DNA from: a virus | Lineage: Duplodnaviria; Heunggongvirae; Uroviricota; Caudoviricetes | IMG/VR virus record: IMGVR_UViG_3300010396_000001 | Span: 132,320-160,709 of that record | Direction: 5' to 3' (one strand) | Length of the DNA: 28,390 nucleotides | Shown: positions 2,863-19,934 of the stretch, one piece after another | Numbering within the stretch: position 1 is the first letter of the stretch | Layout: each line of letters begins with the position of its first letter | The notes under the pieces: model-generated | What the model was told of the DNA's origin: nothing | The model's input: only the letters and a program-made list of their open reading frames with translations | Databases searched by the model: none | Made by a program: the position numbers and the translations under genes

Positions 2863-3291
2863 TCAGACGGCCGGCAGGGGCTCTACCCAGACGTGACCGT
2901 CCATGTGCCGGGGCTCGGTGCCGTACTTGGCCAGGAGAGCAGCCTCGCCCGGGTCGGCAGCGTAGTCCCAGCCCTCCTCCATCCGGGCCTGCGCGTCGAT
3001 GTGGTCATGGCCGACGGTGCACTCGTAGCCGATCTCGCGGCCCGCGGCATTGAACAGCTGGCGCGACCAGGCGCCGCACTCTGTCGGCGGGTGGCCGCCG
3101 TCCTCGCACATCCCGCACTCGGGCTGGCGGCAGAACGGGCGCTCGACCAGCCAGCTGCACTTCCAGGGGGCGCAGCGCTTGCCGGAGTGGTGCTCGGCCG
3201 CGCACTGGCGGACCTCGGCCAGGCTGGCGTGGGTGAAGCGGCAGTGGCCGCAGGCAATCGCGATGATGGTCTCGATCAGCGTGGTCGTCAT
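2863..3291 (-). CDS. Cys/His-rich (Zn-binding) hypothetical protein
   Basis: CGHC-x3-H-x5-VRQC plus further Cys pairs; RBS GAGAGGGA (3297-3304 on the minus strand) and an upstream promoter. Confidence 0.8.
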   Translation of the reverse strand: MTTTLIETIIAIACGHCRFTHASLAEVRQCAAEHHSGKRCAPWKCSWLVERPFCRQPECGMCEDGGHPPTECGAWSRQLFNAAGREIGYECTVGHDHIDAQARMEEGWDYAADPGEAALLAKYGTEPRHMDGHVWVEPLPAV

Positions 3292-3321
3292 GTCGGTCCC
3301 TCTCGTTGTGCTTACGCCACG

Positions 3322-3351
3322 AGCCTAGCAAGGAACATTGTATTTAGTCAA
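3322..3351 (-). promoter_or_regulatory. Sigma70/HrdB-type promoter P1 with palindromic spacer box
   Basis: Minus strand TTGACT-N18-TAGGCT with TG extension; spacer contains CAATGTTCCTTG (3329-3340). Confidence 0.8.
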
Positions 3352-3389
3352 CAAGTCCGGAGCATGCACGGAAGCTCTGGAGGCAAAAC

Positions 3390-5681
3390 GTGAAGATCAG
3401 CTACTCACCCCGTGCGGCCAGCATCTCGGACCGGCGCGTGTTCGGCGACATGAGCCGGGTTATCGCGCACGGCGCGAGGGACCTGCGCGAGGAAGACCCG
3501 CAGGTCACCGAGATGCGCAAGAACCGGCGCGTCTCCAGCCGACTGGCCCGCACGGCGTCCCTGGGGAGCCGGACGGCCTCCGGCGGCGGCTCGGGCGCGG
3601 GATCGGGCTTCTCCGACATCCAGTTCGCCACCGGCCGGCCGCGGGACCCGCTGTTCTACTGGCGGCAGAACAACCTGCCTTACGACTTCAGCCAGAACGA
3701 GGAGCTGGCCAAGGTCCGCGCATTCTGCCGCCTGCTCTACCAGACCGATCCGATCATCGGCGCGTGCATCGACATCTTCTCCAAGTTCCCGGTCATGGGC
3801 TGGGAGCTGGAATGCAAGGACAGCAAGCTGGAGGACTTCTACGGCGAGCTGTTCTTCGACGATGGGGACAACTCCCTCGACTATGACGAGTTTCTCGTCG
3901 ATATCGGCCGCGAGTACTTTATCGCCGGAGAGGCATGGCCTTTCGCCACCTTCGACGAGGACCTCGGAATCTGGTCAGACGAGGAACTGCTCAACCCCGA
4001 TGACATCAAGGTCGAGCGGTCGCCGTTCCTGAAGGAGCCCAGGTATTTCATCAGGCTGCCGTGGACGATCCGGCAGATCCTCCAGACGCGGCAGCCCGCC
4101 TGGGAGTACAACAAGCTCATCAAGGAATACCCCGAGCTGGCCGCCTATACCTCCGAGAATTCCTTCATGCCGGTCAGCAATGTCCTGCTGAAGCAGCTGA
4201 AGTTCAAGGGCGATACCTTTAATATCCGCGGCCTGCCGCTGCTGACCAGGGCCATGCGCTCCATGCTGCAGCAGGAGATGCTGAACACCGCGATGGACGC
4301 CATCGCCGACCGGCTGTACACCCCGCTGATCCTGTGCAAGCTGGGCGCCAGCGCCTCCGACCTCGGCACCTCGGTCCCGTGGATCCCGACCGACGACGAC
4401 CTGGAGAACTTCGAGCTGGCCCTGGATGCCGCGCTGGCCGCGGACTTCAGGGCCCTGGTGTACAACTTCGGCGTCGAGATGGCCCCGGTGCTCGGCCGGG
4501 AGAACATGCCCGACCTGACCCCGGACTTCGAGCGGATCGAGGACCGGGTGCTGATGGTCTTCGGCCTGTCCCGCTCCCTGCTGGTCGGCGCCGGAACGGG
4601 CCAGACCTACGCCGCGGACGCGCTGAACCGCGACCTGGTCACCATGCTGATGACGCGCTACCAGCGATTCCTGACCCGGCACTTCCGCCAGCGCGCCATG
4701 ATCGTTGCCGAGGCCCAGGAGCACTACGACTTCGAGGAGCGCAACGGGCGCCGGTACGTGATCATGGAAGAGGTCCTGGAGACCGACGAGGAGACCGGCG
4801 AGAAGCACATCGTCGAGCAGCCCCGGCTGCTGGTTCCTGACCTGCGGTTCAAGACCCTCAACTTCCATGACGAGGACACCCGGCGCCAGTTCATTGAGGG
4901 CCTGCGCGCTACCGGCGTGCCGATCAGCCAGCGCACCCGCACCCGTGACCTCGGCATCGACCTGGACGAGGAGACCGAGCGGTCCAAGGACGAGGCAGTC
5001 TCCCAGATCGTCGATGAGCAGGAGGTCCGCAAGCGCGCCTACGTGGCGCTGAAGGATGCCGGCCTGCCGCTCGCCCCGGACCTGGTCGCCGACTTCGCTC
5101 CCCAGGCCCAGGTCGAGAACATGCCGCCGGGCATCGCCGCCGAGATGCTGATGCAGGAGCGCTTCGGCACCGACCCGACCGACATCCCCGACATCGCCCC
5201 CACCCCCGAGGACATGGCCGAGGAGGTGCCGCCCGACGCCGAGATGGGCTCCGAGGCCCCTCCGGACGAGGGGATGTACGAGGAAGGGGGCGAGGACCAG
5301 GACCAGCGGCCTGACGAGTCCGATGAGCAGCGGGCCGACATGCCGAAGAAGGGCGCCAGGATGAAGGACTACAGGGGGCGCGGGCTGCCGTCGCAGGCGG
5401 CGCTGTTCCGCCGCACCGCCCGCGTCCGGGATATCATCGCCACCCGCCGGATCGAGGAGGCGACCCTGCAGGCCGAGGCCGCACGCGAGGCACTGCTGGA
5501 TGGCCGCGAGGTGAGCTGGGAGATGCAGGTCCATGCCAAGGAGCATCCCGAGGCCAAGGACTGGGTATCCGGGCCCGAGGTGCCCTGCTACGCCACGCCG
5601 CCCCACGTCGGCGCCCGGCGCGAGCTGACTATCACTGATGACCTGGCGGACAGGGATCGCTATCCGGCGGTGAGGCGGTGA
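3390..5681 (+). CDS. Portal protein (763 aa) with acidic C-terminal extension
   Basis: GGAGG RBS at 3379-3383; helical core (YQTDPIIGACIDIFSKFP, GLPLLTRA, AIADRLYTPLILCKLG, FGLSRSLL) resembling large-actinophage portals; first large gene of the head cluster. Confidence 0.85.
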   Translation: MKISYSPRAASISDRRVFGDMSRVIAHGARDLREEDPQVTEMRKNRRVSSRLARTASLGSRTASGGGSGAGSGFSDIQFATGRPRDPLFYWRQNNLPYDFSQNEELAKVRAFCRLLYQTDPIIGACIDIFSKFPVMGWELECKDSKLEDFYGELFFDDGDNSLDYDEFLVDIGREYFIAGEAWPFATFDEDLGIWSDEELLNPDDIKVERSPFLKEPRYFIRLPWTIRQILQTRQPAWEYNKLIKEYPELAAYTSENSFMPVSNVLLKQLKFKGDTFNIRGLPLLTRAMRSMLQQEMLNTAMDAIADRLYTPLILCKLGASASDLGTSVPWIPTDDDLENFELALDAALAADFRALVYNFGVEMAPVLGRENMPDLTPDFERIEDRVLMVFGLSRSLLVGAGTGQTYAADALNRDLVTMLMTRYQRFLTRHFRQRAMIVAEAQEHYDFEERNGRRYVIMEEVLETDEETGEKHIVEQPRLLVPDLRFKTLNFHDEDTRRQFIEGLRATGVPISQRTRTRDLGIDLDEETERSKDEAVSQIVDEQEVRKRAYVALKDAGLPLAPDLVADFAPQAQVENMPPGIAAEMLMQERFGTDPTDIPDIAPTPEDMAEEVPPDAEMGSEAPPDEGMYEEGGEDQDQRPDESDEQRADMPKKGARMKDYRGRGLPSQAALFRRTARVRDIIATRRIEEATLQAEAAREALLDGREVSWEMQVHAKEHPEAKDWVSGPEVPCYATPPHVGARRELTITDDLADRDRYPAVRR

Positions 5682-5931
5682 CAGAGCCGAAACCCTGAAC
5701 CCAGGCGCGCACGATGGCGGCCAGCCGTCGCTCTATGCCGCCGACCGGTGCCTCAATATTGCCATTGTCCACCCGCTTGATGAACTGCAGGAGCCAGTAG
5801 CAGCCGCTGCCGTCGGCATACCGGCCGAAAGCGGCATGATGCAGGTCCAGCTTCTGCGGTTCTTTCATGGCATATACAAGAGCCTCCTGCAGGACCTCTT
5901 CCTCGGTCCGGGGCTTCTTAGAGCCAGTCAT
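5632..5931 (-). CDS. Hypothetical protein (99 aa), last gene of the minus-strand operon
   Basis: ATG at 5931 in an ATGA overlap with the upstream stop; 3' end overlaps the portal 3' end by 50 nt. Confidence 0.65.
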   Translation of the reverse strand: MTGSKKPRTEEEVLQEALVYAMKEPQKLDLHHAAFGRYADGSGCYWLLQFIKRVDNGNIEAPVGGIERRLAAIVRAWVQGFGSVTASPPDSDPCPPGHQ

Positions 5932-6326
5932 ACCCTGATCCGGCCTTTCCGCGAGAACAGGCTGCGCCACCAGGGACGCTCCTCTGCTCGCTTTCTCTCG
6001 TTATTGACTGTCCGGTAGAGGAACAGGGAGCGCCGGATGATCTCGGCCGCCGTGCAGTCCTGCTCGGACGCCTCGCCCAGGAGCCAGTCGCGCTCTGTCT
6101 GCCCGAGCCCCACCGAGATCCGGTGCGTCGAGGGAGGACGCGAGTGCATGATCCGGCGCACGGCTCCCTGCAGCTGGTCCGAGAGGATGATCACCCCGAA
6201 GTCTCTCAGGGTGATCATGACACCCCCGGGCTCGCTGCGCTGGACCCCCTCGACCGGGTACAGCACGCCGTTGTGCAGGTAGTCATCGCCCTTGCGGACC
6301 TTGCCGATGCCGAGGATCTTATCCAC
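5928..6326 (-). CDS. Protein with C-terminal ribbon-helix-helix domain
   Basis: GTG at 6326 with GGAG RBS; HRISVGLGQTERDWLLGEASEQDCTAAEIIRRSL matches the RHH pattern. Confidence 0.7.
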   Translation of the reverse strand: MDKILGIGKVRKGDDYLHNGVLYPVEGVQRSEPGGVMITLRDFGVIILSDQLQGAVRRIMHSRPPSTHRISVGLGQTERDWLLGEASEQDCTAAEIIRRSLFLYRTVNNERKRAEERPWWRSLFSRKGRIRV

Positions 6327-6654
6327 CGGAGGGCTCCGGCCCCAGTGGCGGCCAGGGCAGCGGGAACGCATTCGTGAGCGCGCGGGCGCGCTCGGTGTAC
6401 AGCTCCCGCTGCCACCAGGACGGGAGGCCCTCGGCCGCTGCGGCCTCCAGGTAGGCCCTCCAGGCGCATGGCTCGATTACCAGGGCGAATTCCAGGGCCA
6501 CCCCGGCCTCGGCCTGCTGCTGCGGGGTTCCCGCAACGGCGGCGACGATGCTGGCCGCCCTGGCCCAGATGGTCGCGACGGAAACGTTCCTCGCGACCTC
6601 CAGGGTCAGCTGAGACGGCGTCTTCGGCAGGGTCTGCCGGGCGTGCCTGCCCAT
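6319..6654 (-). CDS. Hypothetical protein (111 aa)
   Basis: ATG abuts the upstream stop; GGAGGAG RBS inside the end of the upstream gene. Confidence 0.7.
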   Translation of the reverse strand: MGRHARQTLPKTPSQLTLEVARNVSVATIWARAASIVAAVAGTPQQQAEAGVALEFALVIEPCAWRAYLEAAAAEGLPSWWQRELYTERARALTNAFPLPWPPLGPEPSGG

Positions 6655-6900
6655 CTACTCCTCCTGCGGGACCCTGGCCAGCAGGCGCTCCAGGGCGCTG
6701 CGGGCTGTCTTCCGGTCGGGATACCGGCCGCTGTCGGCGGGAATGCTCATCCCGCCGTGGGTGATCAGGAACAGGCCCCCGCCGGGACCGGGCCAGAAGT
6801 ACGGCGCGGGCAGCTGCTCGACCGTCCAGCGGACTCCGTAGCCGGCCTGCTCTTCCTCGGTCACGCGCTGGCCGGCGAGGACCATGTCCCTGGGATTCAC
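6655..6900 (-). CDS. Hypothetical protein (81 aa)
   Basis: GTG at 6900 in a GTGA overlap with the upstream stop; coupled operon member. Confidence 0.7.
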   Translation of the reverse strand: MNPRDMVLAGQRVTEEEQAGYGVRWTVEQLPAPYFWPGPGGGLFLITHGGMSIPADSGRYPDRKTARSALERLLARVPQEE

Positions 6901-7430
6901 CGGATGTAATCCGGGGCGGTCAGCGGCAGGTCGTTCTCGGTCAGCCACGTCCGGGCCCGGTCGGCGCCGATGCCGCCATCAGCCAGCATCCGGTAGGCCT
7001 CGCGCTCGGGGGTGGTGAAGCCGCCCTGGACCTCGACGGCATGCATGGCCGCAGTGACCGGCGAGTGGTAGTGCCCGTCGGCGTCCATGTACCTGTCGCC
7101 GTCTGCAGCTGGCACGAGGCTGGGCAGGGGCTGCGAGGCCAGGCGCTCCATCTTGCGCCGCTTCAGGACATTCTGGTACTGGATGCGCTCGATGTCGTTC
7201 ATGCCCATGATCCTCTGGTACCAGCGCAGCACCTCGTTGATCCCCGCCAGGAAGGCCACGGCCTCGCCCTTGCCGGTGATCGTGCGGATGGTGTCGCCGA
7301 TGCCGAGCACCCACTTCTCGCCGAGAGGGATGCTGGGCAGCACGTACTTGATGATCCCGGCGTCCTGGTGCTCCAGGAGCTTGTCGTAGACCTCCTGATC
7401 GGTCAGGACGTCCCCAGGCTCGTCAGCCAT
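6897..7430 (-). CDS. Hypothetical protein (177 aa)
   Basis: Protein-like ORF with GC3 bias; 8-nt overlap with the upstream gene. Confidence 0.8.
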   Translation of the reverse strand: MADEPGDVLTDQEVYDKLLEHQDAGIIKYVLPSIPLGEKWVLGIGDTIRTITGKGEAVAFLAGINEVLRWYQRIMGMNDIERIQYQNVLKRRKMERLASQPLPSLVPAADGDRYMDADGHYHSPVTAAMHAVEVQGGFTTPEREAYRMLADGGIGADRARTWLTENDLPLTAPDYIR

Positions 7431-7644
7431 TGCTCGTGATCCTTTCCGGGTGCGTTTCCTCGGCGAAGAAGTGCGGCATGCCCATCATGCGGCACCGGTA
7501 ATGCGGCAGCGCCCCGCAGAGAGGGCAGCCTTTCCTGAGGTCACCAAGCGGGCGGAAGCGGTCGCCGAGGCGCTCGCCGTCCCTGACGGCGACATCCATC
7601 CGCTGGGCGGACCTGCGGGCGCCGGCAGCGCCGCGACTCGTCAT
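7423..7644 (-). CDS. Small phage-type zinc-finger protein (73 aa)
   Basis: ATG at 7644 with GGAGGA RBS (7651-7656); CPLCGALPHYRC...HPER (CxxC-x7-C-xn-H-x2-R). Confidence 0.7.
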   Translation of the reverse strand: MTSRGAAGARRSAQRMDVAVRDGERLGDRFRPLGDLRKGCPLCGALPHYRCRMMGMPHFFAEETHPERITSNG

Positions 7645-7676
7645 GATCTTTCCTCCGGGCCGTCGATGTTGCCGCG

Positions 7677-7705
7677 AACCTATCAAGGTTCCTTGCAGTC
7701 GTCAA
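7677..7705 (-). promoter_or_regulatory. Sigma70/HrdB-type promoter P2 with palindromic spacer box
   Basis: Minus strand TTGACG-N17-TAGGTT with TG extension; spacer contains the 5-2-5 palindrome CAAGG-AA-CCTTG (7684-7695). Confidence 0.82.
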
Positions 7706-7742
7706 GCGATTCGGCAGCCGCCCGGAAGCCTCGGGAGGATTC

Positions 7743-14299
<6,557 letters not shown>

Positions 14300-14303
<4 letters not shown>

Positions 14304-14731
14304 GCCAGCTCGCCTACCGTGCAGAGACGCTGACGCCCGAGGAAATAGCTGCTCAGGATCCATTTTGCGGAAATGGCGTGCGCCTGGAGCATGATTCTCA
14401 GGATCTTGCCGCAGTCGCTGAGCTGGTGCTCGGGATGCTCGGCACGCCATGCGTCGTTTTCCCCGGCTGCGCCTGGGCAGACTTGTCCGATCAGGAATTC
14501 GATGCCAGTGAGGCCCGGAAGCAGTGGCACGAGATCCTGGAAGGACAACATGACGGGATTGTCCCAGCTCCTGCTGACTTACGGGCCGCTGGGCGCACTG
14601 GTTCTCATGCTGCTGGTGCCAGTGCCCGGCGCAGGAGTGCCCGTCCTGGTTACCTACTGGTACGTTGTCAAGCAGCAGAAGGAGCTAGACCTGAAGCAGC
14701 AGGCGCTAGACCTGGAGCGCGAGGCGGCTAA
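14300..14731 (+). CDS. Possible hypothetical protein
   Basis: ATGA overlap with the giant gene. The first ~85 aa look protein-like, but the 3' 182 nt overlap the next gene out of frame. Confidence 0.4.
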
Positions 14732-14846
14732 GCGAGCAGTCGGGGAGCTGGAGATGGCGAACCGGCTGGTCGGCGAGCTGCGCACGATCGCTGCTGCCCG
14801 CACCGGAGGGATTCCGGATGTCACGGCATCACGGAAAGATCCGTAA
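14550..14846 (+). CDS. Small membrane protein with coiled-coil tail (holin-cassette member)
   Basis: GAAGGA RBS, ATG at 14550; hydrophobic N-terminus LLLTYGPLGALVLMLLV...VLVTYWYVV followed by a charged heptad region. Confidence 0.72.
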   Translation: MTGLSQLLLTYGPLGALVLMLLVPVPGAGVPVLVTYWYVVKQQKELDLKQQALDLEREAAKRAVGELEMANRLVGELRTIAAARTGGIPDVTASRKDP

Positions 14847-15060
14847 CATGCTTGCGACCATTACCGGCCATCATCCCGCAGCAGGCGGCCTGGATGAGCG
14901 GATCGAGACAGCACACCAGGAAGTCGCCGAGGCTGCTGACCGGCTGGAGGCGGCCAAGAGGGAAGCCCGTCAGGCGCGCACCTATATCAATGAGAACCGG
15001 TTCGCTGCGCTGATCGCGGATTCACTGGGCATACAGCATCCCCGGCACAATTCTCACTGA
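14818..15060 (+). CDS. Small helical protein of the type found beside actinophage holins
   Basis: Coiled-coil then INENRFAALIADSLG (the NxF motif is recalled for such proteins); lies between two membrane genes. Confidence 0.65.
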   Translation: MSRHHGKIRNMLATITGHHPAAGGLDERIETAHQEVAEAADRLEAAKREARQARTYINENRFAALIADSLGIQHPRHNSH

Positions 15061-15110
15061 CTGTCTCTACCGCCCGGTACGATCTTCCCGGGAAGTATCA
15101 GGGAGGGGTC

Positions 15111-15605
15111 GTGATGATGGAGAACTCTGCAAAGCCGCGCGGACGTGCTCGCGCAATTTGGCGCGTGGCCTGGGCTCCGGGAATGAACCGGTCCTGGGTC
15201 ATTATCGGTGTTCTTATCGTCGCCTGGATCGTGTGCGGGTTTTTCCTTGACCGCACGCAGTTCGGGCCGGACCTGTATAATGTTTCCATTGTAGCGCTTC
15301 CGGCAGCAGCCCTGCTGTTCAGCCTGGAATACACGGTGATGGGATTCCGGGGATCAGCCAAGTGGTGGACGAATGACCTCGGCACCACGATCGTGATGAA
15401 GGACGTTGCCATCATCACCTCGAATATCGTCCTGGCCTGGGCCCAGCTGTTTAACCATGGCCTGATTGATACCCCGCTGCCTGCATGGATTTACGTCGGC
15501 GGCGTTACCGGGGCGGTGCTCATCCTGGTCTGGCGCATCCTGGTCTGGCTGCGCGTTTACCGCCAGGAGCGGATATCGGGCCGTCAGCCGGACGGCGGCG
15601 CCTGA
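15111..15605 (+). CDS. Multi-pass membrane protein, putative holin
   Basis: GGAGG RBS; about four hydrophobic segments, KWWTNDLGTTIVM loop and basic C-terminus WRILVWLRVYRQER. Confidence 0.62.
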   Translation: MMMENSAKPRGRARAIWRVAWAPGMNRSWVIIGVLIVAWIVCGFFLDRTQFGPDLYNVSIVALPAAALLFSLEYTVMGFRGSAKWWTNDLGTTIVMKDVAIITSNIVLAWAQLFNHGLIDTPLPAWIYVGGVTGAVLILVWRILVWLRVYRQERISGRQPDGGA

Positions 15606-15805
15606 TAAAGCTGCCGGCGCGCATCAAGCCACGCCTGGTAAGCCGTGTCGGCCACGGCCCTTGCCCGGAACGCCGCCCCGTAGGCCCGTCCCGCGGCCGG
15701 GGCGAAGCCGCCGGCCTGCATGATCTGCGCCCAGGTGACGAAAAGCTGCCGGGCTTGCGCCTCCGCTGCGGTGTAAGCGCTCCACAGGGCGTCGATCTCG
15801 GCCAT
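15584..15805 (-). CDS. Small helical protein, LW..AY...APP module copy A
   Basis: GAGAGAG RBS; clear paralogy with the adjacent gene and with the C-terminus of 16924-18465. Confidence 0.85.
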   Translation of the reverse strand: MAEIDALWSAYTAAEAQARQLFVTWAQIMQAGGFAPAAGRAYGAAFRARAVADTAYQAWLDARRQLYQAPPSG

Positions 15806-15816
15806 CGCGTGCTCTC

Positions 15817-16053
15817 TCAGCTCGGCGGCGCATTGTAGATCTGCTGGTAAAACGTCATCCAGGCGTCATAGGCGTCTCCGGCTGCGATCTGCGCCTGGTA
15901 AGCCGCCGAGAAGGCCGAGGCGCTGCGCCAGGAATGGCCGCCGAGCGTCGTCATGTGCTCTTCCCACTTGCGGCTCAGCTGGCTCGCGGTGGCCTGAGCC
16001 TGCTGGTAGGCAGCCCACAGGGTGCCGAGATCAGCGTCTGTCAGCTGGGCCAT
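15817..16053 (-). CDS. Small helical protein, LW..AY...APP module copy B
   Basis: ATG at 16053 with GGGAG RBS; paralogous to copy A. Confidence 0.85.
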   Translation of the reverse strand: MAQLTDADLGTLWAAYQQAQATASQLSRKWEEHMTTLGGHSWRSASAFSAAYQAQIAAGDAYDAWMTFYQQIYNAPPS

Positions 16054-16121
16054 GAGTTTCTCCCGGGAGCGCATGGCTTCCCTGGAAGAGGCGAGACCAC
16101 CACGTCCTGGGGAGGGCCCCG

Positions 16122-16445
16122 ATGACAGAGCAGCCGGCAGGCGGCCGGGATGTCCTGGCTGAGCTGGACTCGCTGGGCGAGTACCTCCTCGCCCTGATCG
16201 GCGACAATCCGCAGCCGGGCCAGGACGCCAACAAGACCGACCTCGTATCCCGGCTGTTCCACCTCAAGACGGTGGCGCAGAACATCAGCGAGCTGCACGC
16301 GGTTTATGCCTCCGGCGTCACGCACGACCAGCTGGTACGCCGCAGCCGGGGCATGAGCGAGGCCGACACCGCTGCGCAGGAGCGCATCGCCGAACTGGAA
16401 CGCCAGCTTGCCGAGGCCCGAGGGAGTGCCAGTGCCCAGGTATAA
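16122..16445 (+). CDS. Hypothetical helical/coiled-coil protein
   Basis: GGGGAGG RBS; 107-aa ORF overlapping the next start. Confidence 0.75.
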   Translation: MTEQPAGGRDVLAELDSLGEYLLALIGDNPQPGQDANKTDLVSRLFHLKTVAQNISELHAVYASGVTHDQLVRRSRGMSEADTAAQERIAELERQLAEARGSASAQV

Positions 16446-16923
16446 CGCCCAGTGGCAGACGGCTGCCGCCCTGGCGAGTAACAGCGTGCTGGCCTGGATG
16501 GGCTTCACCGTGGTCCCCGCCCGGCTACGCCGGTGCACGATCGGCGTCGCGAACTCCGGCGGCACGATCACCAGCATGCAGTGCCAGGTGGGCCTGAACC
16601 TTGCCACCACCGGCAGTCCGGCCACTCCGGTGAACGTCACCTCGAACAACATGGCGCCGTTCGGCGGCACGCCAGTAGCCTCGACGAACAAGCTGATCAG
16701 CGCCTGGACCACGGCGCCGACGCTGGGTGCGCAGACCACCGACGCCTACACGATCACCTTCAATGACCAGCTGATGGGCGACCTGCCCTGGGAGCTGCTG
16801 GAGGAGTTCTGGTTCTCGGGAGCGGGCCTGGCCGCCAATGGCGGCATCGCCTTCGTGAACCGCAGCGGCGCCGCACTGCCCGGCTCGCACTACTTCACCA
16901 TCGCGGTGGAATGGGAAGAGTAA
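16432..16923 (+). CDS. Beta-rich protein, possibly virion structural
   Basis: GTG at 16432 after GGGAG; Thr/Ala/Gly/Asn-rich alternating beta pattern, ends in YFTIAVEWEE. Confidence 0.75.
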   Translation: MPRYNAQWQTAAALASNSVLAWMGFTVVPARLRRCTIGVANSGGTITSMQCQVGLNLATTGSPATPVNVTSNNMAPFGGTPVASTNKLISAWTTAPTLGAQTTDAYTITFNDQLMGDLPWELLEEFWFSGAGLAANGGIAFVNRSGAALPGSHYFTIAVEWEE

Positions 16924-18465
16924 TCAGTTCGTCGGAGGCGCCGGGTACAGCGCCTTTCTGGCGTCATCCCAGGCCTTCCAGGCTGCGTCCTTAGCCTGAT
17001 CCGCGGTATACAGCTGCGCGTAGATCGAGCCGGCCGTCCCGTCGGTCCGGGCGGCCGAGGCGATCATGCGCCAGTTGCGCTCCAGCTGCGCATGGCGCTC
17101 AGCTGCCGCCAGGTAAGCGATCCACAGAGTCGCCAGGTTGGTCTGGGCTGGCGCTGCAGTCGCGGTCAGCACCGAGGGAGCCGACAGGGCGGCCTGCGCC
17201 AGGGCAGCGCACACGGCGCTCGCCGTCAGCACCGACGAGGCGCTCAGGGCAGCCGAGCCGAAGACCGTGGCCGGGCCCGCCGGAGGCGGCGGGGGAAGCT
17301 GCGCCGGCCGGGTCTTCCTGAAGGCCAGCGACGGGCGCCGCTTCGGCGCCAGCAGGGTGATCCGGGCGAGGAGTCCCCGGTAAAGCCGCGAGCGTGACGA
17401 TATGACCTGCGGGCGCCCGGCGCGCCGCATGCCGGGCGGGAGTGCTGCCGGTGGCGGGACGCGCCGCAGGACCCGGCGCTCCCCCTTCGCAGCCAGCCGG
17501 GATGCCCGGCGCCCGGTCACGCCATGGGAAACCGCTGCCGGCAGGATGACGGCCGCGGGCACCGCCTGCTGCGTCCGGCTGCGGACCGGGGAGGACGCGG
17601 GCCGGCGCCGGGACACTGGGGCGCGCAGGATGACGGCCGCGGGCACGGCAAGCACCGGCGGGCGCCCGGGCTCTCGCGTGCGCCGCAGGTCCGCGGTGCG
17701 CAGCGGCAGCCGCCGCGCCTGGGGCAGCACGGGGACCACCAGGGAGCCCTGCAGCTGCGGCCTGCGGATCCTGGAGACAGCCGATGCCGTGCGAGGCCGC
17801 TGCGCCTGCGGGACGAGCGTCACCGTGGCGTTTCCCGGCGCGATGGCCATGCACAGGCCTATCCACTCGCCGGCGCTTCCCTGTGTTCCCGAGAAGGTGA
17901 ACGTGCCCGTGGACGAGCTGATCTGGTAGCCCAGGACGCTGTTGTTGGCGGCGCTGAGTCCCTGGCTGGTCCAGGGAGCGCCCGGGAGCGTGGGCAGGCC
18001 GTTGAACTGGACCAGCAGCCCGAGGATGAACTCGGCCAGCTGAGTGGTGAGGGAAGTGGGCCCGGAGGAGACCGCGGTGCTGTTGCCGGTGGCGATGCCC
18101 GCGGTGCCGTCCAGGAAGGGCGAGCTGCCCAGGCCCGATACCTCGGCATACATCAGGCCGACGACCGCAGCCAGGGACCCGTTGGGCACGGAGATCGACA
18201 CGGCGCTCTGGCCGCCCGCGATGGACGGCTTCATCCAGGCTGCGCCGTAGACCTCGTTGCTGCTGTAGCCCGACAGCTCGGCAGCCGGGTTCGTCCAGCC
18301 GGTGGTCACGCCGCCCAGGGACGGACCGGAGGAGCTGATCGCGACATTGGAGGTAGAGAAGCTGGTGGGCAGCAGGAACAGCGTGTTGCCTGCGCCGGTT
18401 GCCTGCGAGAGGCTGCCGGAGAAGGCATTGGGGATCGACCCCGACTGCACTACGGCGATCGCCAC
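16924..18465 (-). CDS. Chimeric protein: Ser/Gly/Thr-rich beta domain, Arg/Pro-rich linker, LSAxSVLTA repeats, LW..AY...APP module copy C
   Basis: AGGAGG RBS (18471-18476); the N-terminal ~210 aa resemble virion fibre/decoration beta domains; the C-terminal ~73 aa are paralogous to copies A and B. Confidence 0.85.
   Translation of the reverse strand: MAIAVVQSGSIPNAFSGSLSQATGAGNTLFLLPTSFSTSNVAISSSGPSLGGVTTGWTNPAAELSGYSSNEVYGAAWMKPSIAGGQSAVSISVPNGSLAAVVGLMYAEVSGLGSSPFLDGTAGIATGNSTAVSSGPTSLTTQLAEFILGLLVQFNGLPTLPGAPWTSQGLSAANNSVLGYQISSSTGTFTFSGTQGSAGEWIGLCMAIAPGNATVTLVPQAQRPRTASAVSRIRRPQLQGSLVVPVLPQARRLPLRTADLRRTREPGRPPVLAVPAAVILRAPVSRRRPASSPVRSRTQQAVPAAVILPAAVSHGVTGRRASRLAAKGERRVLRRVPPPAALPPGMRRAGRPQVISSRSRLYRGLLARITLLAPKRRPSLAFRKTRPAQLPPPPPAGPATVFGSAALSASSVLTASAVCAALAQAALSAPSVLTATAAPAQTNLATLWIAYLAAAERHAQLERNWRMIASAARTDGTAGSIYAQLYTADQAKDAAWKAWDDARKALYPAPPTN
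17541..17646. repeat. 22-bp direct repeat GCAGGATGACGGCCGCGGGCAC, 84-bp period
   Basis: Copies at 17541-17562 and 17625-17646; encodes VPAAVIL twice. Confidence 0.9.
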
Positions 18466-18515
18466 GTGACCCTCCTCTGCTTCTGATTACCGAAGGCAGC
18501 ATGCAGGGTTTCCGG

Positions 18516-18545
18516 TTGACGTTATGCAAGAAACCTTGATAGTGT
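18516..18545 (+). promoter_or_regulatory. Sigma70/HrdB-type promoter P3 with palindromic spacer box; predicted leaderless transcript
   Basis: TTGACG-N18-TAGTGT with TG extension; spacer contains CAAGAAACCTTG (18527-18538); ATG 18552 lies 7 nt after the -10. Confidence 0.82.
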
Positions 18546-18551
18546 TTTGGC

Positions 18552-19133
18552 ATGAGCAGCGGACAGGCAGGGGCGGTCATGAATCAGCGGATGGCTAGCG
18601 ATGACCTGATGACCGAGATCAGCCAGCTGGCTGCCGAGCGGCAGCACGTGCTGACTGCCGACATGACCGGATCGAGGCGCCTGACCCTGGCCAGCGCGCT
18701 GAGCGTGCGGTCCCACCTGCAGGGGCGCCCGGCCCGCCACCCTGCCCAGGAACCTGCCCCGGCTCCGGTGCGCAGTGCCCCGGCCGACGGTTCTCTTCCT
18801 CCCGTCACGGCCTTCCGGCACGTGCCGCCTGGCCGGTACGCCGTCGAGAGCCGGACCGGGAACAACGACCTGGACTTCTTCGAGGTGCGCCGGCCCGAGG
18901 AGGGCAAGTGGGCGGGCTACACCTTCGTCGAGCGGATCATCGGCGGCCATGACAACGCGCCGGTCCGCGGCATTGCCGCCCGGCGGGCACTGCAGGCCAT
19001 CGTGCGCGCGGGGTTCGATGAGTCCAGGCTGCGGGCCGCTCAGGAGCTGGGGCTGTGCAAGGAGTGCGGGCGCCACCTGACCGATGAGGAGTCGCGACTG
19101 GCGGGCATGGGGCCCTACTGCAGGAACAAGTAA
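18552..19133 (+). CDS. DUF6011-type zinc-finger protein
   Basis: C-terminal CKECGRHLTDEESRLAGMGPYC, preceded by GRYAV...LDFFEV...GKWAGYTFV, typical of this actinophage family. Confidence 0.8.
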   Translation: MSSGQAGAVMNQRMASDDLMTEISQLAAERQHVLTADMTGSRRLTLASALSVRSHLQGRPARHPAQEPAPAPVRSAPADGSLPPVTAFRHVPPGRYAVESRTGNNDLDFFEVRRPEEGKWAGYTFVERIIGGHDNAPVRGIAARRALQAIVRAGFDESRLRAAQELGLCKECGRHLTDEESRLAGMGPYCRNK

Positions 19134-19167: not shown

Positions 19168-19187
19168 TGTCATGCGGGAAGGCAACC

Positions 19188-19934
19188 ATGAACTACAACG
19201 AGCCCTGGCTGTATGCCGTGATCGCCGGGCTGTTCCTGGTCCTGGTGCTCCTGGAGCGCCTCGGCCCGGTCAGCATCCGGCAGGAGATCACCAGCCGCCT
19301 GCAGCACCTGCATCATTCTCAGGAACGCCTGGTCGTTATCCACGAAACGGATGCTGAGCCTGCCCCGGAGCCCCCGGCGGTCCGGATCCTGCCGGGGCCC
19401 GGTTACGTGCTGCCTCCTGCCGCCCCGGCGGTCCCCGGTCACGAGCCCCTGCTGATGCCATCGCAGCCGACCGGCAAGCCCACCCTGCTGTCGGACGAGG
19501 CCCGCACGGAGCAGCTGGCGTCTCTTCGCGCCGACTGCGAGTACTGCGGCGAGGACCACGTCGGCGACTGCGAGAAGAGCCTCCTGGCCCGGGCGCTGCG
19601 CAAGCGCGGTGTCCAGCCCGGCTCGATCGCCTTCGAGAAGGCGCTCGGCCGCCCGGCGCCTCCTGGCGCCGAGGATACGATTCCGGACATGAAGCAGCCT
19701 CCTGAGCCCCGGCCCCCTGTCCGGGTGCGCCCCGGCGAGCAGGTCCGGATCGAGCTGCCGCCGCCGCCCGCCATCCCGGAGATCGATCTCCTGGGTGATT
19801 ACGACCCGGACTCAGTGGCCGCCCGGATCAGGGCCGCTTACGAGCGTGCCGAGGCTGACCAGCAGCTGCGGATCGACGAGGCGGCGCAGCTGAGCCGCCA
19901 GGTCTGGGCAGCGGAGCACCCGCCAGCAGGCTGA
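19188..19934 (+). CDS. N-terminally membrane-anchored Pro-rich protein with CxxC-x3-H-x3-C motif
   Basis: WLYAVIAGLFLVLVLL transmembrane segment; CEYCGEDHVGDC; GGAAGG RBS. Confidence 0.78.
   Translation: MNYNEPWLYAVIAGLFLVLVLLERLGPVSIRQEITSRLQHLHHSQERLVVIHETDAEPAPEPPAVRILPGPGYVLPPAAPAVPGHEPLLMPSQPTGKPTLLSDEARTEQLASLRADCEYCGEDHVGDCEKSLLARALRKRGVQPGSIAFEKALGRPAPPGAEDTIPDMKQPPEPRPPVRVRPGEQVRIELPPPPAIPEIDLLGDYDPDSVAARIRAAYERAEADQQLRIDEAAQLSRQVWAAEHPPAG

Follow-up and report, generated by a model that had tools for sequence, protein, structure and literature searches.

Three short promoters, here called P1, P2 and P3, lie among the head genes of an uncultured actinobacterial soil phage and share a 12-bp box between their -35 and -10 hexamers. 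They stand in a stretch of 28,390 nucleotides (the window), which is the last 28.4 kb of the 160,709-bp IMG/VR record IMGVR_UViG_3300010396_000001. The record has direct terminal repeats and a GC content of 68%, and it is rated 100% complete. We followed the combination of -35, box and -10 (the cassette) through this genome and its relatives, and considered what might read the box. Positions are those of the window unless marked as genome positions.

Three promoters and their units among the head genes

Each promoter is given below with the unit behind it and its divergent partner.

3322–3351, minus strand: P1, with the -35 TTGACT (3351–3346), a 5-nt gap, the box (3340–3329), 1 nt and the -10 TAGGCT (3327–3322)
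2863–3291, minus strand: P1 unit, a single Cys-rich open reading frame (ORF) of 142 aa with 10 Cys and two CxxC motifs
3390–5681, plus strand: portal gene, matching phrog_2833; divergent partner of P1, without a cassette on its own strand
7677–7705, minus strand: P2, with the -35 TTGACG (7705–7700), a 4-nt gap, the box (7695–7684), 1 nt and the -10 TAGGTT (7682–7677)
5632–7644, minus strand: P2 unit, about six small ORFs, the first of 73 aa, with a ribbon-helix-helix (RHH)-like ORF at 5928–6218
7743–14303, plus strand: gene of 2186 aa; divergent partner of P2, without a cassette on its own strand
18516–18545, plus strand: P3, with the -35 TTGACG (18516–18521), a 5-nt gap, the box (18527–18538), 1 nt and the -10 TAGTGT (18540–18545)
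18552–19133, plus strand: P3 unit, one gene, encoding a DUF6011 protein with a C-terminal CxxC...C
16924–18465, minus strand: gene of 513 aa; divergent partner of P3
19142–19167, plus strand: GC-rich hairpin with a 10-bp stem, directly 3' of the P3 gene

A preliminary description of the window had reported the three promoter strings, and we recovered them verbatim, at the same coordinates and on the same strands. Its placing of the promoters in divergent gaps adjoining the portal gene, the 2186-aa gene and the 513-aa gene was likewise correct. At all three promoters the box stops 1 nt short of the -10, and its final TG occupies the position of the extended -10 TG, as described; the gap of 4–5 nt between the -35 and the box gives spacers of 17–18 nt. 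The dyad symmetry ascribed to the box is perfect at P2, but one pair is broken in P1 and one in P3.

The 12-mer by itself is not significant in the window. With up to two mismatches it has 3 matches against 1.5 expected, and 21 of 100 shuffled sequences reached 3. The composite -35/box/-10 pattern had no match in 100 shuffles, and a weight matrix scored the sites at 36–45 bits (8–20 bits for the best match in shuffled genomes).

Transcription from P1 is predicted to start near 3315, leaving a leader of about 24 nt with a Shine–Dalgarno (SD) sequence. The ATG behind P2, at 7644, is preceded by GGAGGA. Behind P3 an ATG at 18552 follows TAGTGT by 6 nt (a second possible ATG is at 18579), and because the distance is exactly 6 nt a leaderless start is possible. 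The hairpin 3' of the P3 gene makes this a one-gene unit; it is likely a terminator that separates the unit from the subsequent head genes.

The 142-aa product of the P1 unit had no match in Pfam or among the PHROGs and is not conserved in the relatives introduced below, and no homologue of the P2-unit ORFs was found near the portal genes of those relatives. Only the P3 unit, of the three, is conserved there, and there too it stands behind the cassette of its own genome. The DUF6011 protein has a confidently predicted fold (predicted local distance difference test score, pLDDT, 89.7), yet it matched nothing among solved structures. The first gene of each unit had been described as coding for a Zn-binding protein. 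That ascription comes from Cys motifs, with the DUF6011 match at P3; the sole Pfam zinc-finger match, that of the 73-aa P2 product, reached only 20 bits, below the cut-off of 24. The rule did not extend to the class: a CxxC motif is found in only 4 of 13 first genes behind cassettes genome-wide.

The promoter class in the genome and its clade

The preliminary description had proposed a regulon of three units within the head cluster. This is too narrow. Further strong copies lie at genome positions 1880, 3562, 8711, 10179, 39891, 70510, 105749 and 130764, so that the 160.7-kb genome holds at least 11 strong copies, plus a weaker tier, and the design is shared by a whole clade. One check that the preliminary description had set, enrichment of the box at promoters genome-wide, came out in its favor when the complete genome was scanned with a weight matrix. 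The design in this genome (G000) is TTGAC, 4–6 nt, the box, 1 nt and TAG..T, with a loosely conserved TG.CA near the start. The TTGAC -35 is present in 8 of the 11 strong copies, with spacers of 16–18 nt. The box of the class is 12 bp long, CAR-N6-YTG with an AT-rich middle, adjoins the -10 and spans -25 to -14, overlapping the promoter core region. It is carried by 10 of the 28 intergenic -35/-10 matches in G000.

All 19 scored sites are intergenic, though ORFs take up 91% of the genome in a rough gene call. Eighteen of them face a downstream gene, three weaker ones only at a distance of 1.5–21 kb; the exception is the minus-strand cassette at genome 1880, which has no downstream ORF. The genome is mainly plus-strand, and the cassette opens most of its short minus-strand islands. 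It also opens a 31-gene block at 70.5–97 kb with replication and recombination genes. None of the core virion genes has a cassette on its own strand. The class would drive non-virion units, among them the three antisense units of the head cluster, which are poorly conserved.

Downstream of the cassette at genome 1880 lie about 550 nt (genome 1295–1880) without a convincing ORF. Rfam gave no match downstream of this cassette; the minus strand of the region may encode a non-coding RNA. Two other repeated motifs were noticed. The motif C(C/G)GGAAG(C) stands 11–35 nt upstream of virion-type start codons, at the portal gene, the 2186-aa gene, the gene at 19188 and about a dozen others (window 3370–3375, 7724–7729, 19177–19181). 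Distinct from both the SD sequence and the box, it may be a late-gene signal; a check by hand showed that its GGAAG core, at the divergent late genes, does not keep a constant distance from the box. The other motif is promoter-like (TTGCAT, 4 nt, GCGGGRAACCTG, 1 nt, CAGGAT) and lies at genome 13315–13343 and 14192–14220, in a region of tRNAs and non-coding RNA, with one copy beside a palindromic box-like site (13294–13305).

The phage looks lytic and distantly related to the cluster C myoviruses. Its portal protein is about 38% identical to those of cluster C mycobacteriophages, Rhodococcus phage Finch and Gordonia phage RedWattleHog; a megablast search against cultured phages and plasmids found no close cultured relative. 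A search with the back-translated portal sequence yielded 46 related soil contigs at 61–79% identity, and five complete relatives (G001–G005) were analysed in full. A loose cassette pattern had 18, 22, 21, 9 and 17 matches in these five genomes, and none in a backwards control. It stayed at control level in the distant cultured relatives Finch, Tonenili and RedWattleHog. A scan of viral contigs with the exact pattern returned one match, on an unrelated AT-rich contig, which we attribute to chance.

Every genome has a box consensus of its own, down to the base at -13:

G001: CAG.TTTTCTTG, then C
G002 and G005: CAGCTTTTCTTG, then A
G003: CAGCTTTCCTTG, then C
G004: CAAGGTTCCTTG
a further group of contigs: CAAGGTTTATTG

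Self-complementarity beyond the outer CA/TG is confined to G000, its nearest contig and G004, and palindromy is therefore no family trait: the dyad symmetry described as a general feature of the box is limited to some lineages, and most relatives have an asymmetric box. In G000, pairs 1–3 are complementary in 82–100% of sites and pairs 4, 5 and 6 in 55, 36 and 27%; G004 is similar, and in G001–G003 only the outer CA/TG is complementary. A CAAGG left half and a CCTTG right half, both of which are also found alone, can be viewed as having met in the palindrome. On the portal tree the left-half type needs 2 changes, versus 6.6 in shuffles, and is thus heritable and rarely switches. Orthologous promoters differ in their box as their genomes do: before the DUF6011 gene, before the gene that opens the replication block and before a 664-aa gene, the box is of the variant proper to the genome. 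Independent sites have changed in concert; beyond -35 to +8 the flanks of the cassettes share no similarity.

The sites very probably form a host-type (sigma-A) promoter class whose common box is under selection. Of 82 cassettes, 32 have an ATG or GTG 6–8 nt past the -10. The nine sites tested open ORFs of 55–307 aa with a GC content at third codon positions of 0.75–0.96. Since many copies have an ATG 6–7 nt past the -10 at the head of a long ORF, these are in all likelihood genuine sigma-A-type promoters, often with a predicted leaderless start. Leaderless starts are common in Actinobacteria. G000 and G004 keep a good -35; the genomes with an asymmetric box have a TTGAC -35 at 0 of 63 cassettes. 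Other TTGAC-N-TANNNT sites number 0–4 per genome in the latter (about 2 are estimated by chance). Having almost no other host-type promoters, these genomes must rely, when infection begins, on cassettes that fire with unmodified polymerase.

The asymmetric box is used in both orientations. At 58 sites its T-rich strand is the non-template strand and the box ends 1 nt before the -10. Fourteen "reverse-only" boxes have no forward -10; on their other side, at 0 nt, stands a TAT..T that points in the opposite direction. A reverse -10 is found at 61% of boxes that lack a forward one, with about 16% estimated by chance, and several reverse-only sites have a leaderless ATG or the short leader shared by the promoters of their genome. 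At 154347 and 155845 of G003 a single 12-bp box has -10 hexamers on both strands and leaderless genes on both sides, with an ATG 6–7 nt after each hexamer, ORFs of 55–183 aa and starts about 37 bp apart.

The siting of the cassettes at the borders of variable genes is visible next to the portal gene. The gene of 341 aa at 1735–2760, with an N-terminal zinc ribbon, is the sole conserved gene upstream of the portal in the loci of 28 relatives, where a divergent cassette stands immediately before it. At the junction of this gene with the portal gene G000 has the P1 unit and G003 a different insert of about 5 kb. Farther upstream in the window are a tRNA-Met (CAT, 610–684) and a tRNA-Asn (GTT, 732–807), just upstream of a block of small genes with the first RHH ORF.

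What may read the box

We give a probability of about 0.5 to the reading that the box is an autonomous cis-element, the site of a phage-encoded protein that co-evolves with the box and acts on the whole class. Host RNA polymerase with its primary sigma factor would read the -10 TANNNT, the extended -10 TG and, in G000, the TTGAC -35. Transcription would start 6–7 nt past the -10, often directly at the ATG, and would serve the replication block, the small variable genes and the three antisense accessory units of the window. A phage DNA-binding protein on the box could act on all these promoters together; by occluding RNA polymerase it would bring about a coordinated shut-off after the early phase. 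Occlusion would be its most likely action because the box occupies -25 to -14 and meets the first bases of the -10.

Two features of the sites carry this reading. The exact box works inverted, and its variants change in concert although the DNA-reading regions of sigma-A are highly conserved among Actinobacteria; the box would thus be read as duplex DNA and not by the promoter-reading surfaces of the polymerase. Negative control of the whole class is favored by the position of the box at -25 to -14 together with the firing of the cassettes on unmodified polymerase, and we also count in its favor that the G000 promoters are already near-consensus for sigma-A. The sequences themselves show the sites with their number and placement, their promoter character, the variants of each lineage and the inverted use of the box; we infer the binding of a protein, its phage origin and its repressive action alike. 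A protein on the box that shuts off the class is a reasonable supposition, and concerted lineage-specific change and the inverted use of the box strengthen it.

Several observations weigh against this reading. Box and -10 stand in very strict register, 1 nt or 0 nt apart at more than 100 sites, which fits an element read along with the -10 better than a free operator. In most relatives the box is asymmetric and strongly biased in orientation (58 forward versus 14 reverse-only). The -35 was lost exactly in the genomes with the asymmetric T-rich box, which suggests that the box adds to promoter strength. Three sites at which the box seemed to lie over the -35 (genome 62126, 60344 and 59216) were considered as proof of positional freedom and rejected: one of them doubles as a cassette in the normal register whose -10 is weak, and the scores of the other two do not leave the range of chance. 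Finally, we found no cognate DNA-binding protein conserved together with the sites. Regulator searches gave no match to sigma region 2, sigma region 4 or WhiB, and the matches to HTH_3, MerR/HTH_17 and RHH were all sub-threshold. The two RHH proteins and a helix-turn-helix-like ORF are not conserved in the relatives, and the ten proteins shared only with the other palindromic-box genome include no DNA-binding family. Given the strict register, the orientation bias, the loss of the -35 and the failure to find a candidate protein, we only slightly favor the view that a separate factor binds the box, and that this factor is a repressor is tentative, with the odds somewhat below even.

The proteins that came into question are quickly described. 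The two RHH proteins had been put forward as possible binders. The ORF at 1165–1455 has a weak match to an Arc-like PHROG, with RHH_1 below threshold, and the second is the RHH-like ORF of the P2 unit. Neither has a homologue near the portal genes of the 46 relatives or anywhere in the five complete ones, and the chance that either is the box-binding factor is slim at the very most. A sub-threshold MerR/HTH_17-like helix-turn-helix (genome 101863–101928) was noticed in a small ORF on the minus strand (genome 101821–102006), at the far end of a ten-gene unit driven by the cassette at 105749. Among the ten proteins shared only with the second genome that has a palindromic box, together with ten small proteins conserved in the clade, the sole match to a transcription-factor family was an Lsr2 homologue (genome 31691–32041), with a dimerisation domain (E=1.5e-16) and a DNA-binding domain. 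Lsr2 binds AT-rich DNA. In this genome, with its 68% GC, cassettes make up five of the 11 30-mers richest in AT. We considered whether the phage Lsr2 gene is always served by a promoter without the box, but the relatives did not bear this out.

The box might instead be a promoter module that host RNA polymerase reads together with the extended -10, possibly with RbpA or CarD and with no separate protein. It would be a phage-optimised "long -10" that can replace the -35, and selection for strength, along with recombination between the copies, would keep its sequence uniform. Strict register in all genomes speaks for such a module, as does the retention of the -35 in the palindromic-box genomes and its loss from all T-rich-box cassettes. 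In the T-rich-box genomes, moreover, the cassettes are the only host-type promoters and must use unmodified polymerase. The early promoters of T4, T5 and SPO1 are conserved well past the host consensus, which we count on the same side. But an exact asymmetric box that works both ways round would present the polymerase with quite different sequences, and lineage-specific variants change in concert at orthologous promoters though the reading regions of sigma-A are conserved; we consider this explanation unlikely, if far from negligible. Replacement of -35 recognition might also be the work of a phage activator or polymerase-retargeting factor that is made early or injected, along the lines of MotA/AsiA at T4 middle promoters or gp39 at the extended -10 promoters of Thermus phage P23-45. 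This would account for a -35 that is dispensable in most relatives and for lineage-specific boxes. It is improbable all the same: the G000 copies with a near-consensus -35 and spacer need no activator, a site centred near -19 is unusual except in MerR types (which have spacers of 19–20 bp, here 16–18), and in genomes without other promoters nothing would transcribe the gene of an activator made de novo.

The likeness of the cassettes might also come mainly from shared descent, through copying and exchange by recombination as in the PeSL (promoter-early stem-loop) cassettes of T4-type phages, the palindrome having no function of its own. The cassettes do border poorly conserved ORFan units inserted at differing places, such as the junction of the 341-aa and portal genes (G000 versus G003); a strong hairpin immediately precedes roughly one copy in four, as in PeSLs, and the palindrome can be viewed as two independently varying halves. 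Yet flank similarity is confined to -35 to +8, orthologous promoters with diverged flanks still carry the genome-specific box, and the sequences before the cassettes have on average the same folding energy as random 60-mers, so that we see little chance for this account. Promoters of a phage-encoded RNA polymerase or sigma factor would explain lineage-specific motifs of about 23 nt, and the motif is indeed long, genome-specific and at a fixed distance to the start. This is scarcely credible, however, given that the inner -10 positions are free to vary, as in TANNNT, that TTGAC stands at a spacing of 16–18, that the box is invertible and that the searches matched neither sigma region 2 or 4 nor a T7-type polymerase (the control of the last search was uninformative).

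To return to a phage-encoded binder, a bolder form of that reading is rather unlikely. A new, fast co-evolving phage protein would sit in the promoter spacer in either orientation and govern a whole temporal class, and through it most of the clade would have come to do without the -35. Bidirectional promoters could then be minimal, with two leaderless genes that start only about 37 bp apart around one 12-bp site.

Comparison with known promoter and operator families

The cassettes provide a map of transcription signals for a widespread clade of soil actinophages of about 160 kb (46 relatives) for which no close cultured relative was found. The map sets host-type (early or accessory) units apart from virion genes. 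Concerted lineage-specific change of the box and its use in both orientations amount to a clean natural experiment, which points to a new regulator or to an unrecognised reading of promoter spacers in Actinobacteria. These short, strong and often leaderless promoters could also serve as expression parts in high-GC hosts.

The promoter class is a variant of known phage promoter and operator families. It resembles the SoxR/MerR operators, which are also dyads between the -35 and -10, in look only. In the SoxR box of E. coli, CCTCAAGTTAACTTGAGG, the central 12 bp (CAAG-N4-CTTG; PMC4411124) agree with the outer 4+4 bases of the G000 box. Compared with the consensus in PMC4411124, however, the cassettes have no CCT/AGG arms and have spacers of 16–18 bp instead of 19–20. 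There is also no MerR-family protein above threshold in the genome, and most relatives have no dyad.

Extended -10 promoters without a -35 include the middle and late promoters of Thermus phage P23-45 and typical mycobacterial promoters. Most relatives are similar in that only TG-N-TANNNT and the upstream spacer are conserved, with no -35. Unlike such promoters, G000 keeps a consensus -35, and the conserved part of the spacer is far longer than TGN and is invertible.

Multi-copy repressor sites are known from actinophages: the "stoperators" read by L5 gp71 and the conserved inverted repeats at phiC31 early promoters. Like the box, these sites are short, repeated tens of times, tied to early promoters and lineage-specific. 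They are read by one phage protein, where a single reader of the box is putative. L5 and phiC31 are temperate, with a known immunity repressor and sites that vary in position and also lie inside operons; the phage studied here looks lytic, and its site is locked to the -10.

The promoter-early stem-loop (PeSL) cassettes of T4-type phages offer a further parallel (Arbiol et al. 2010, PMC2839356; Comeau et al. 2014, PMC4122927). In both cases, many near-identical strong host-type promoters are spread over one large myovirus genome and precede small, poorly conserved genes in plastic regions among conserved core genes. The siting at borders of variable ORFan genes that is typical of PeSLs is found here as well, the genes of the P1 and P2 units having no homologues in the relatives. 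PeSLs are joined to an upstream terminator hairpin, and strong hairpins lie directly upstream in a subset of our cassettes (77422, 81774 and 87715 of G002; 10179 of G000), although the mean folding energy there is that of random 60-mers. In the present clade, unlike in PeSLs, no more than about one copy in four has the hairpin, the phage infects a high-GC actinobacterium, and leaderless transcripts are predicted to be numerous. Whereas the whole promoter and its stem-loop are conserved in PeSLs, the conserved part here is the 12-bp box in the spacer.

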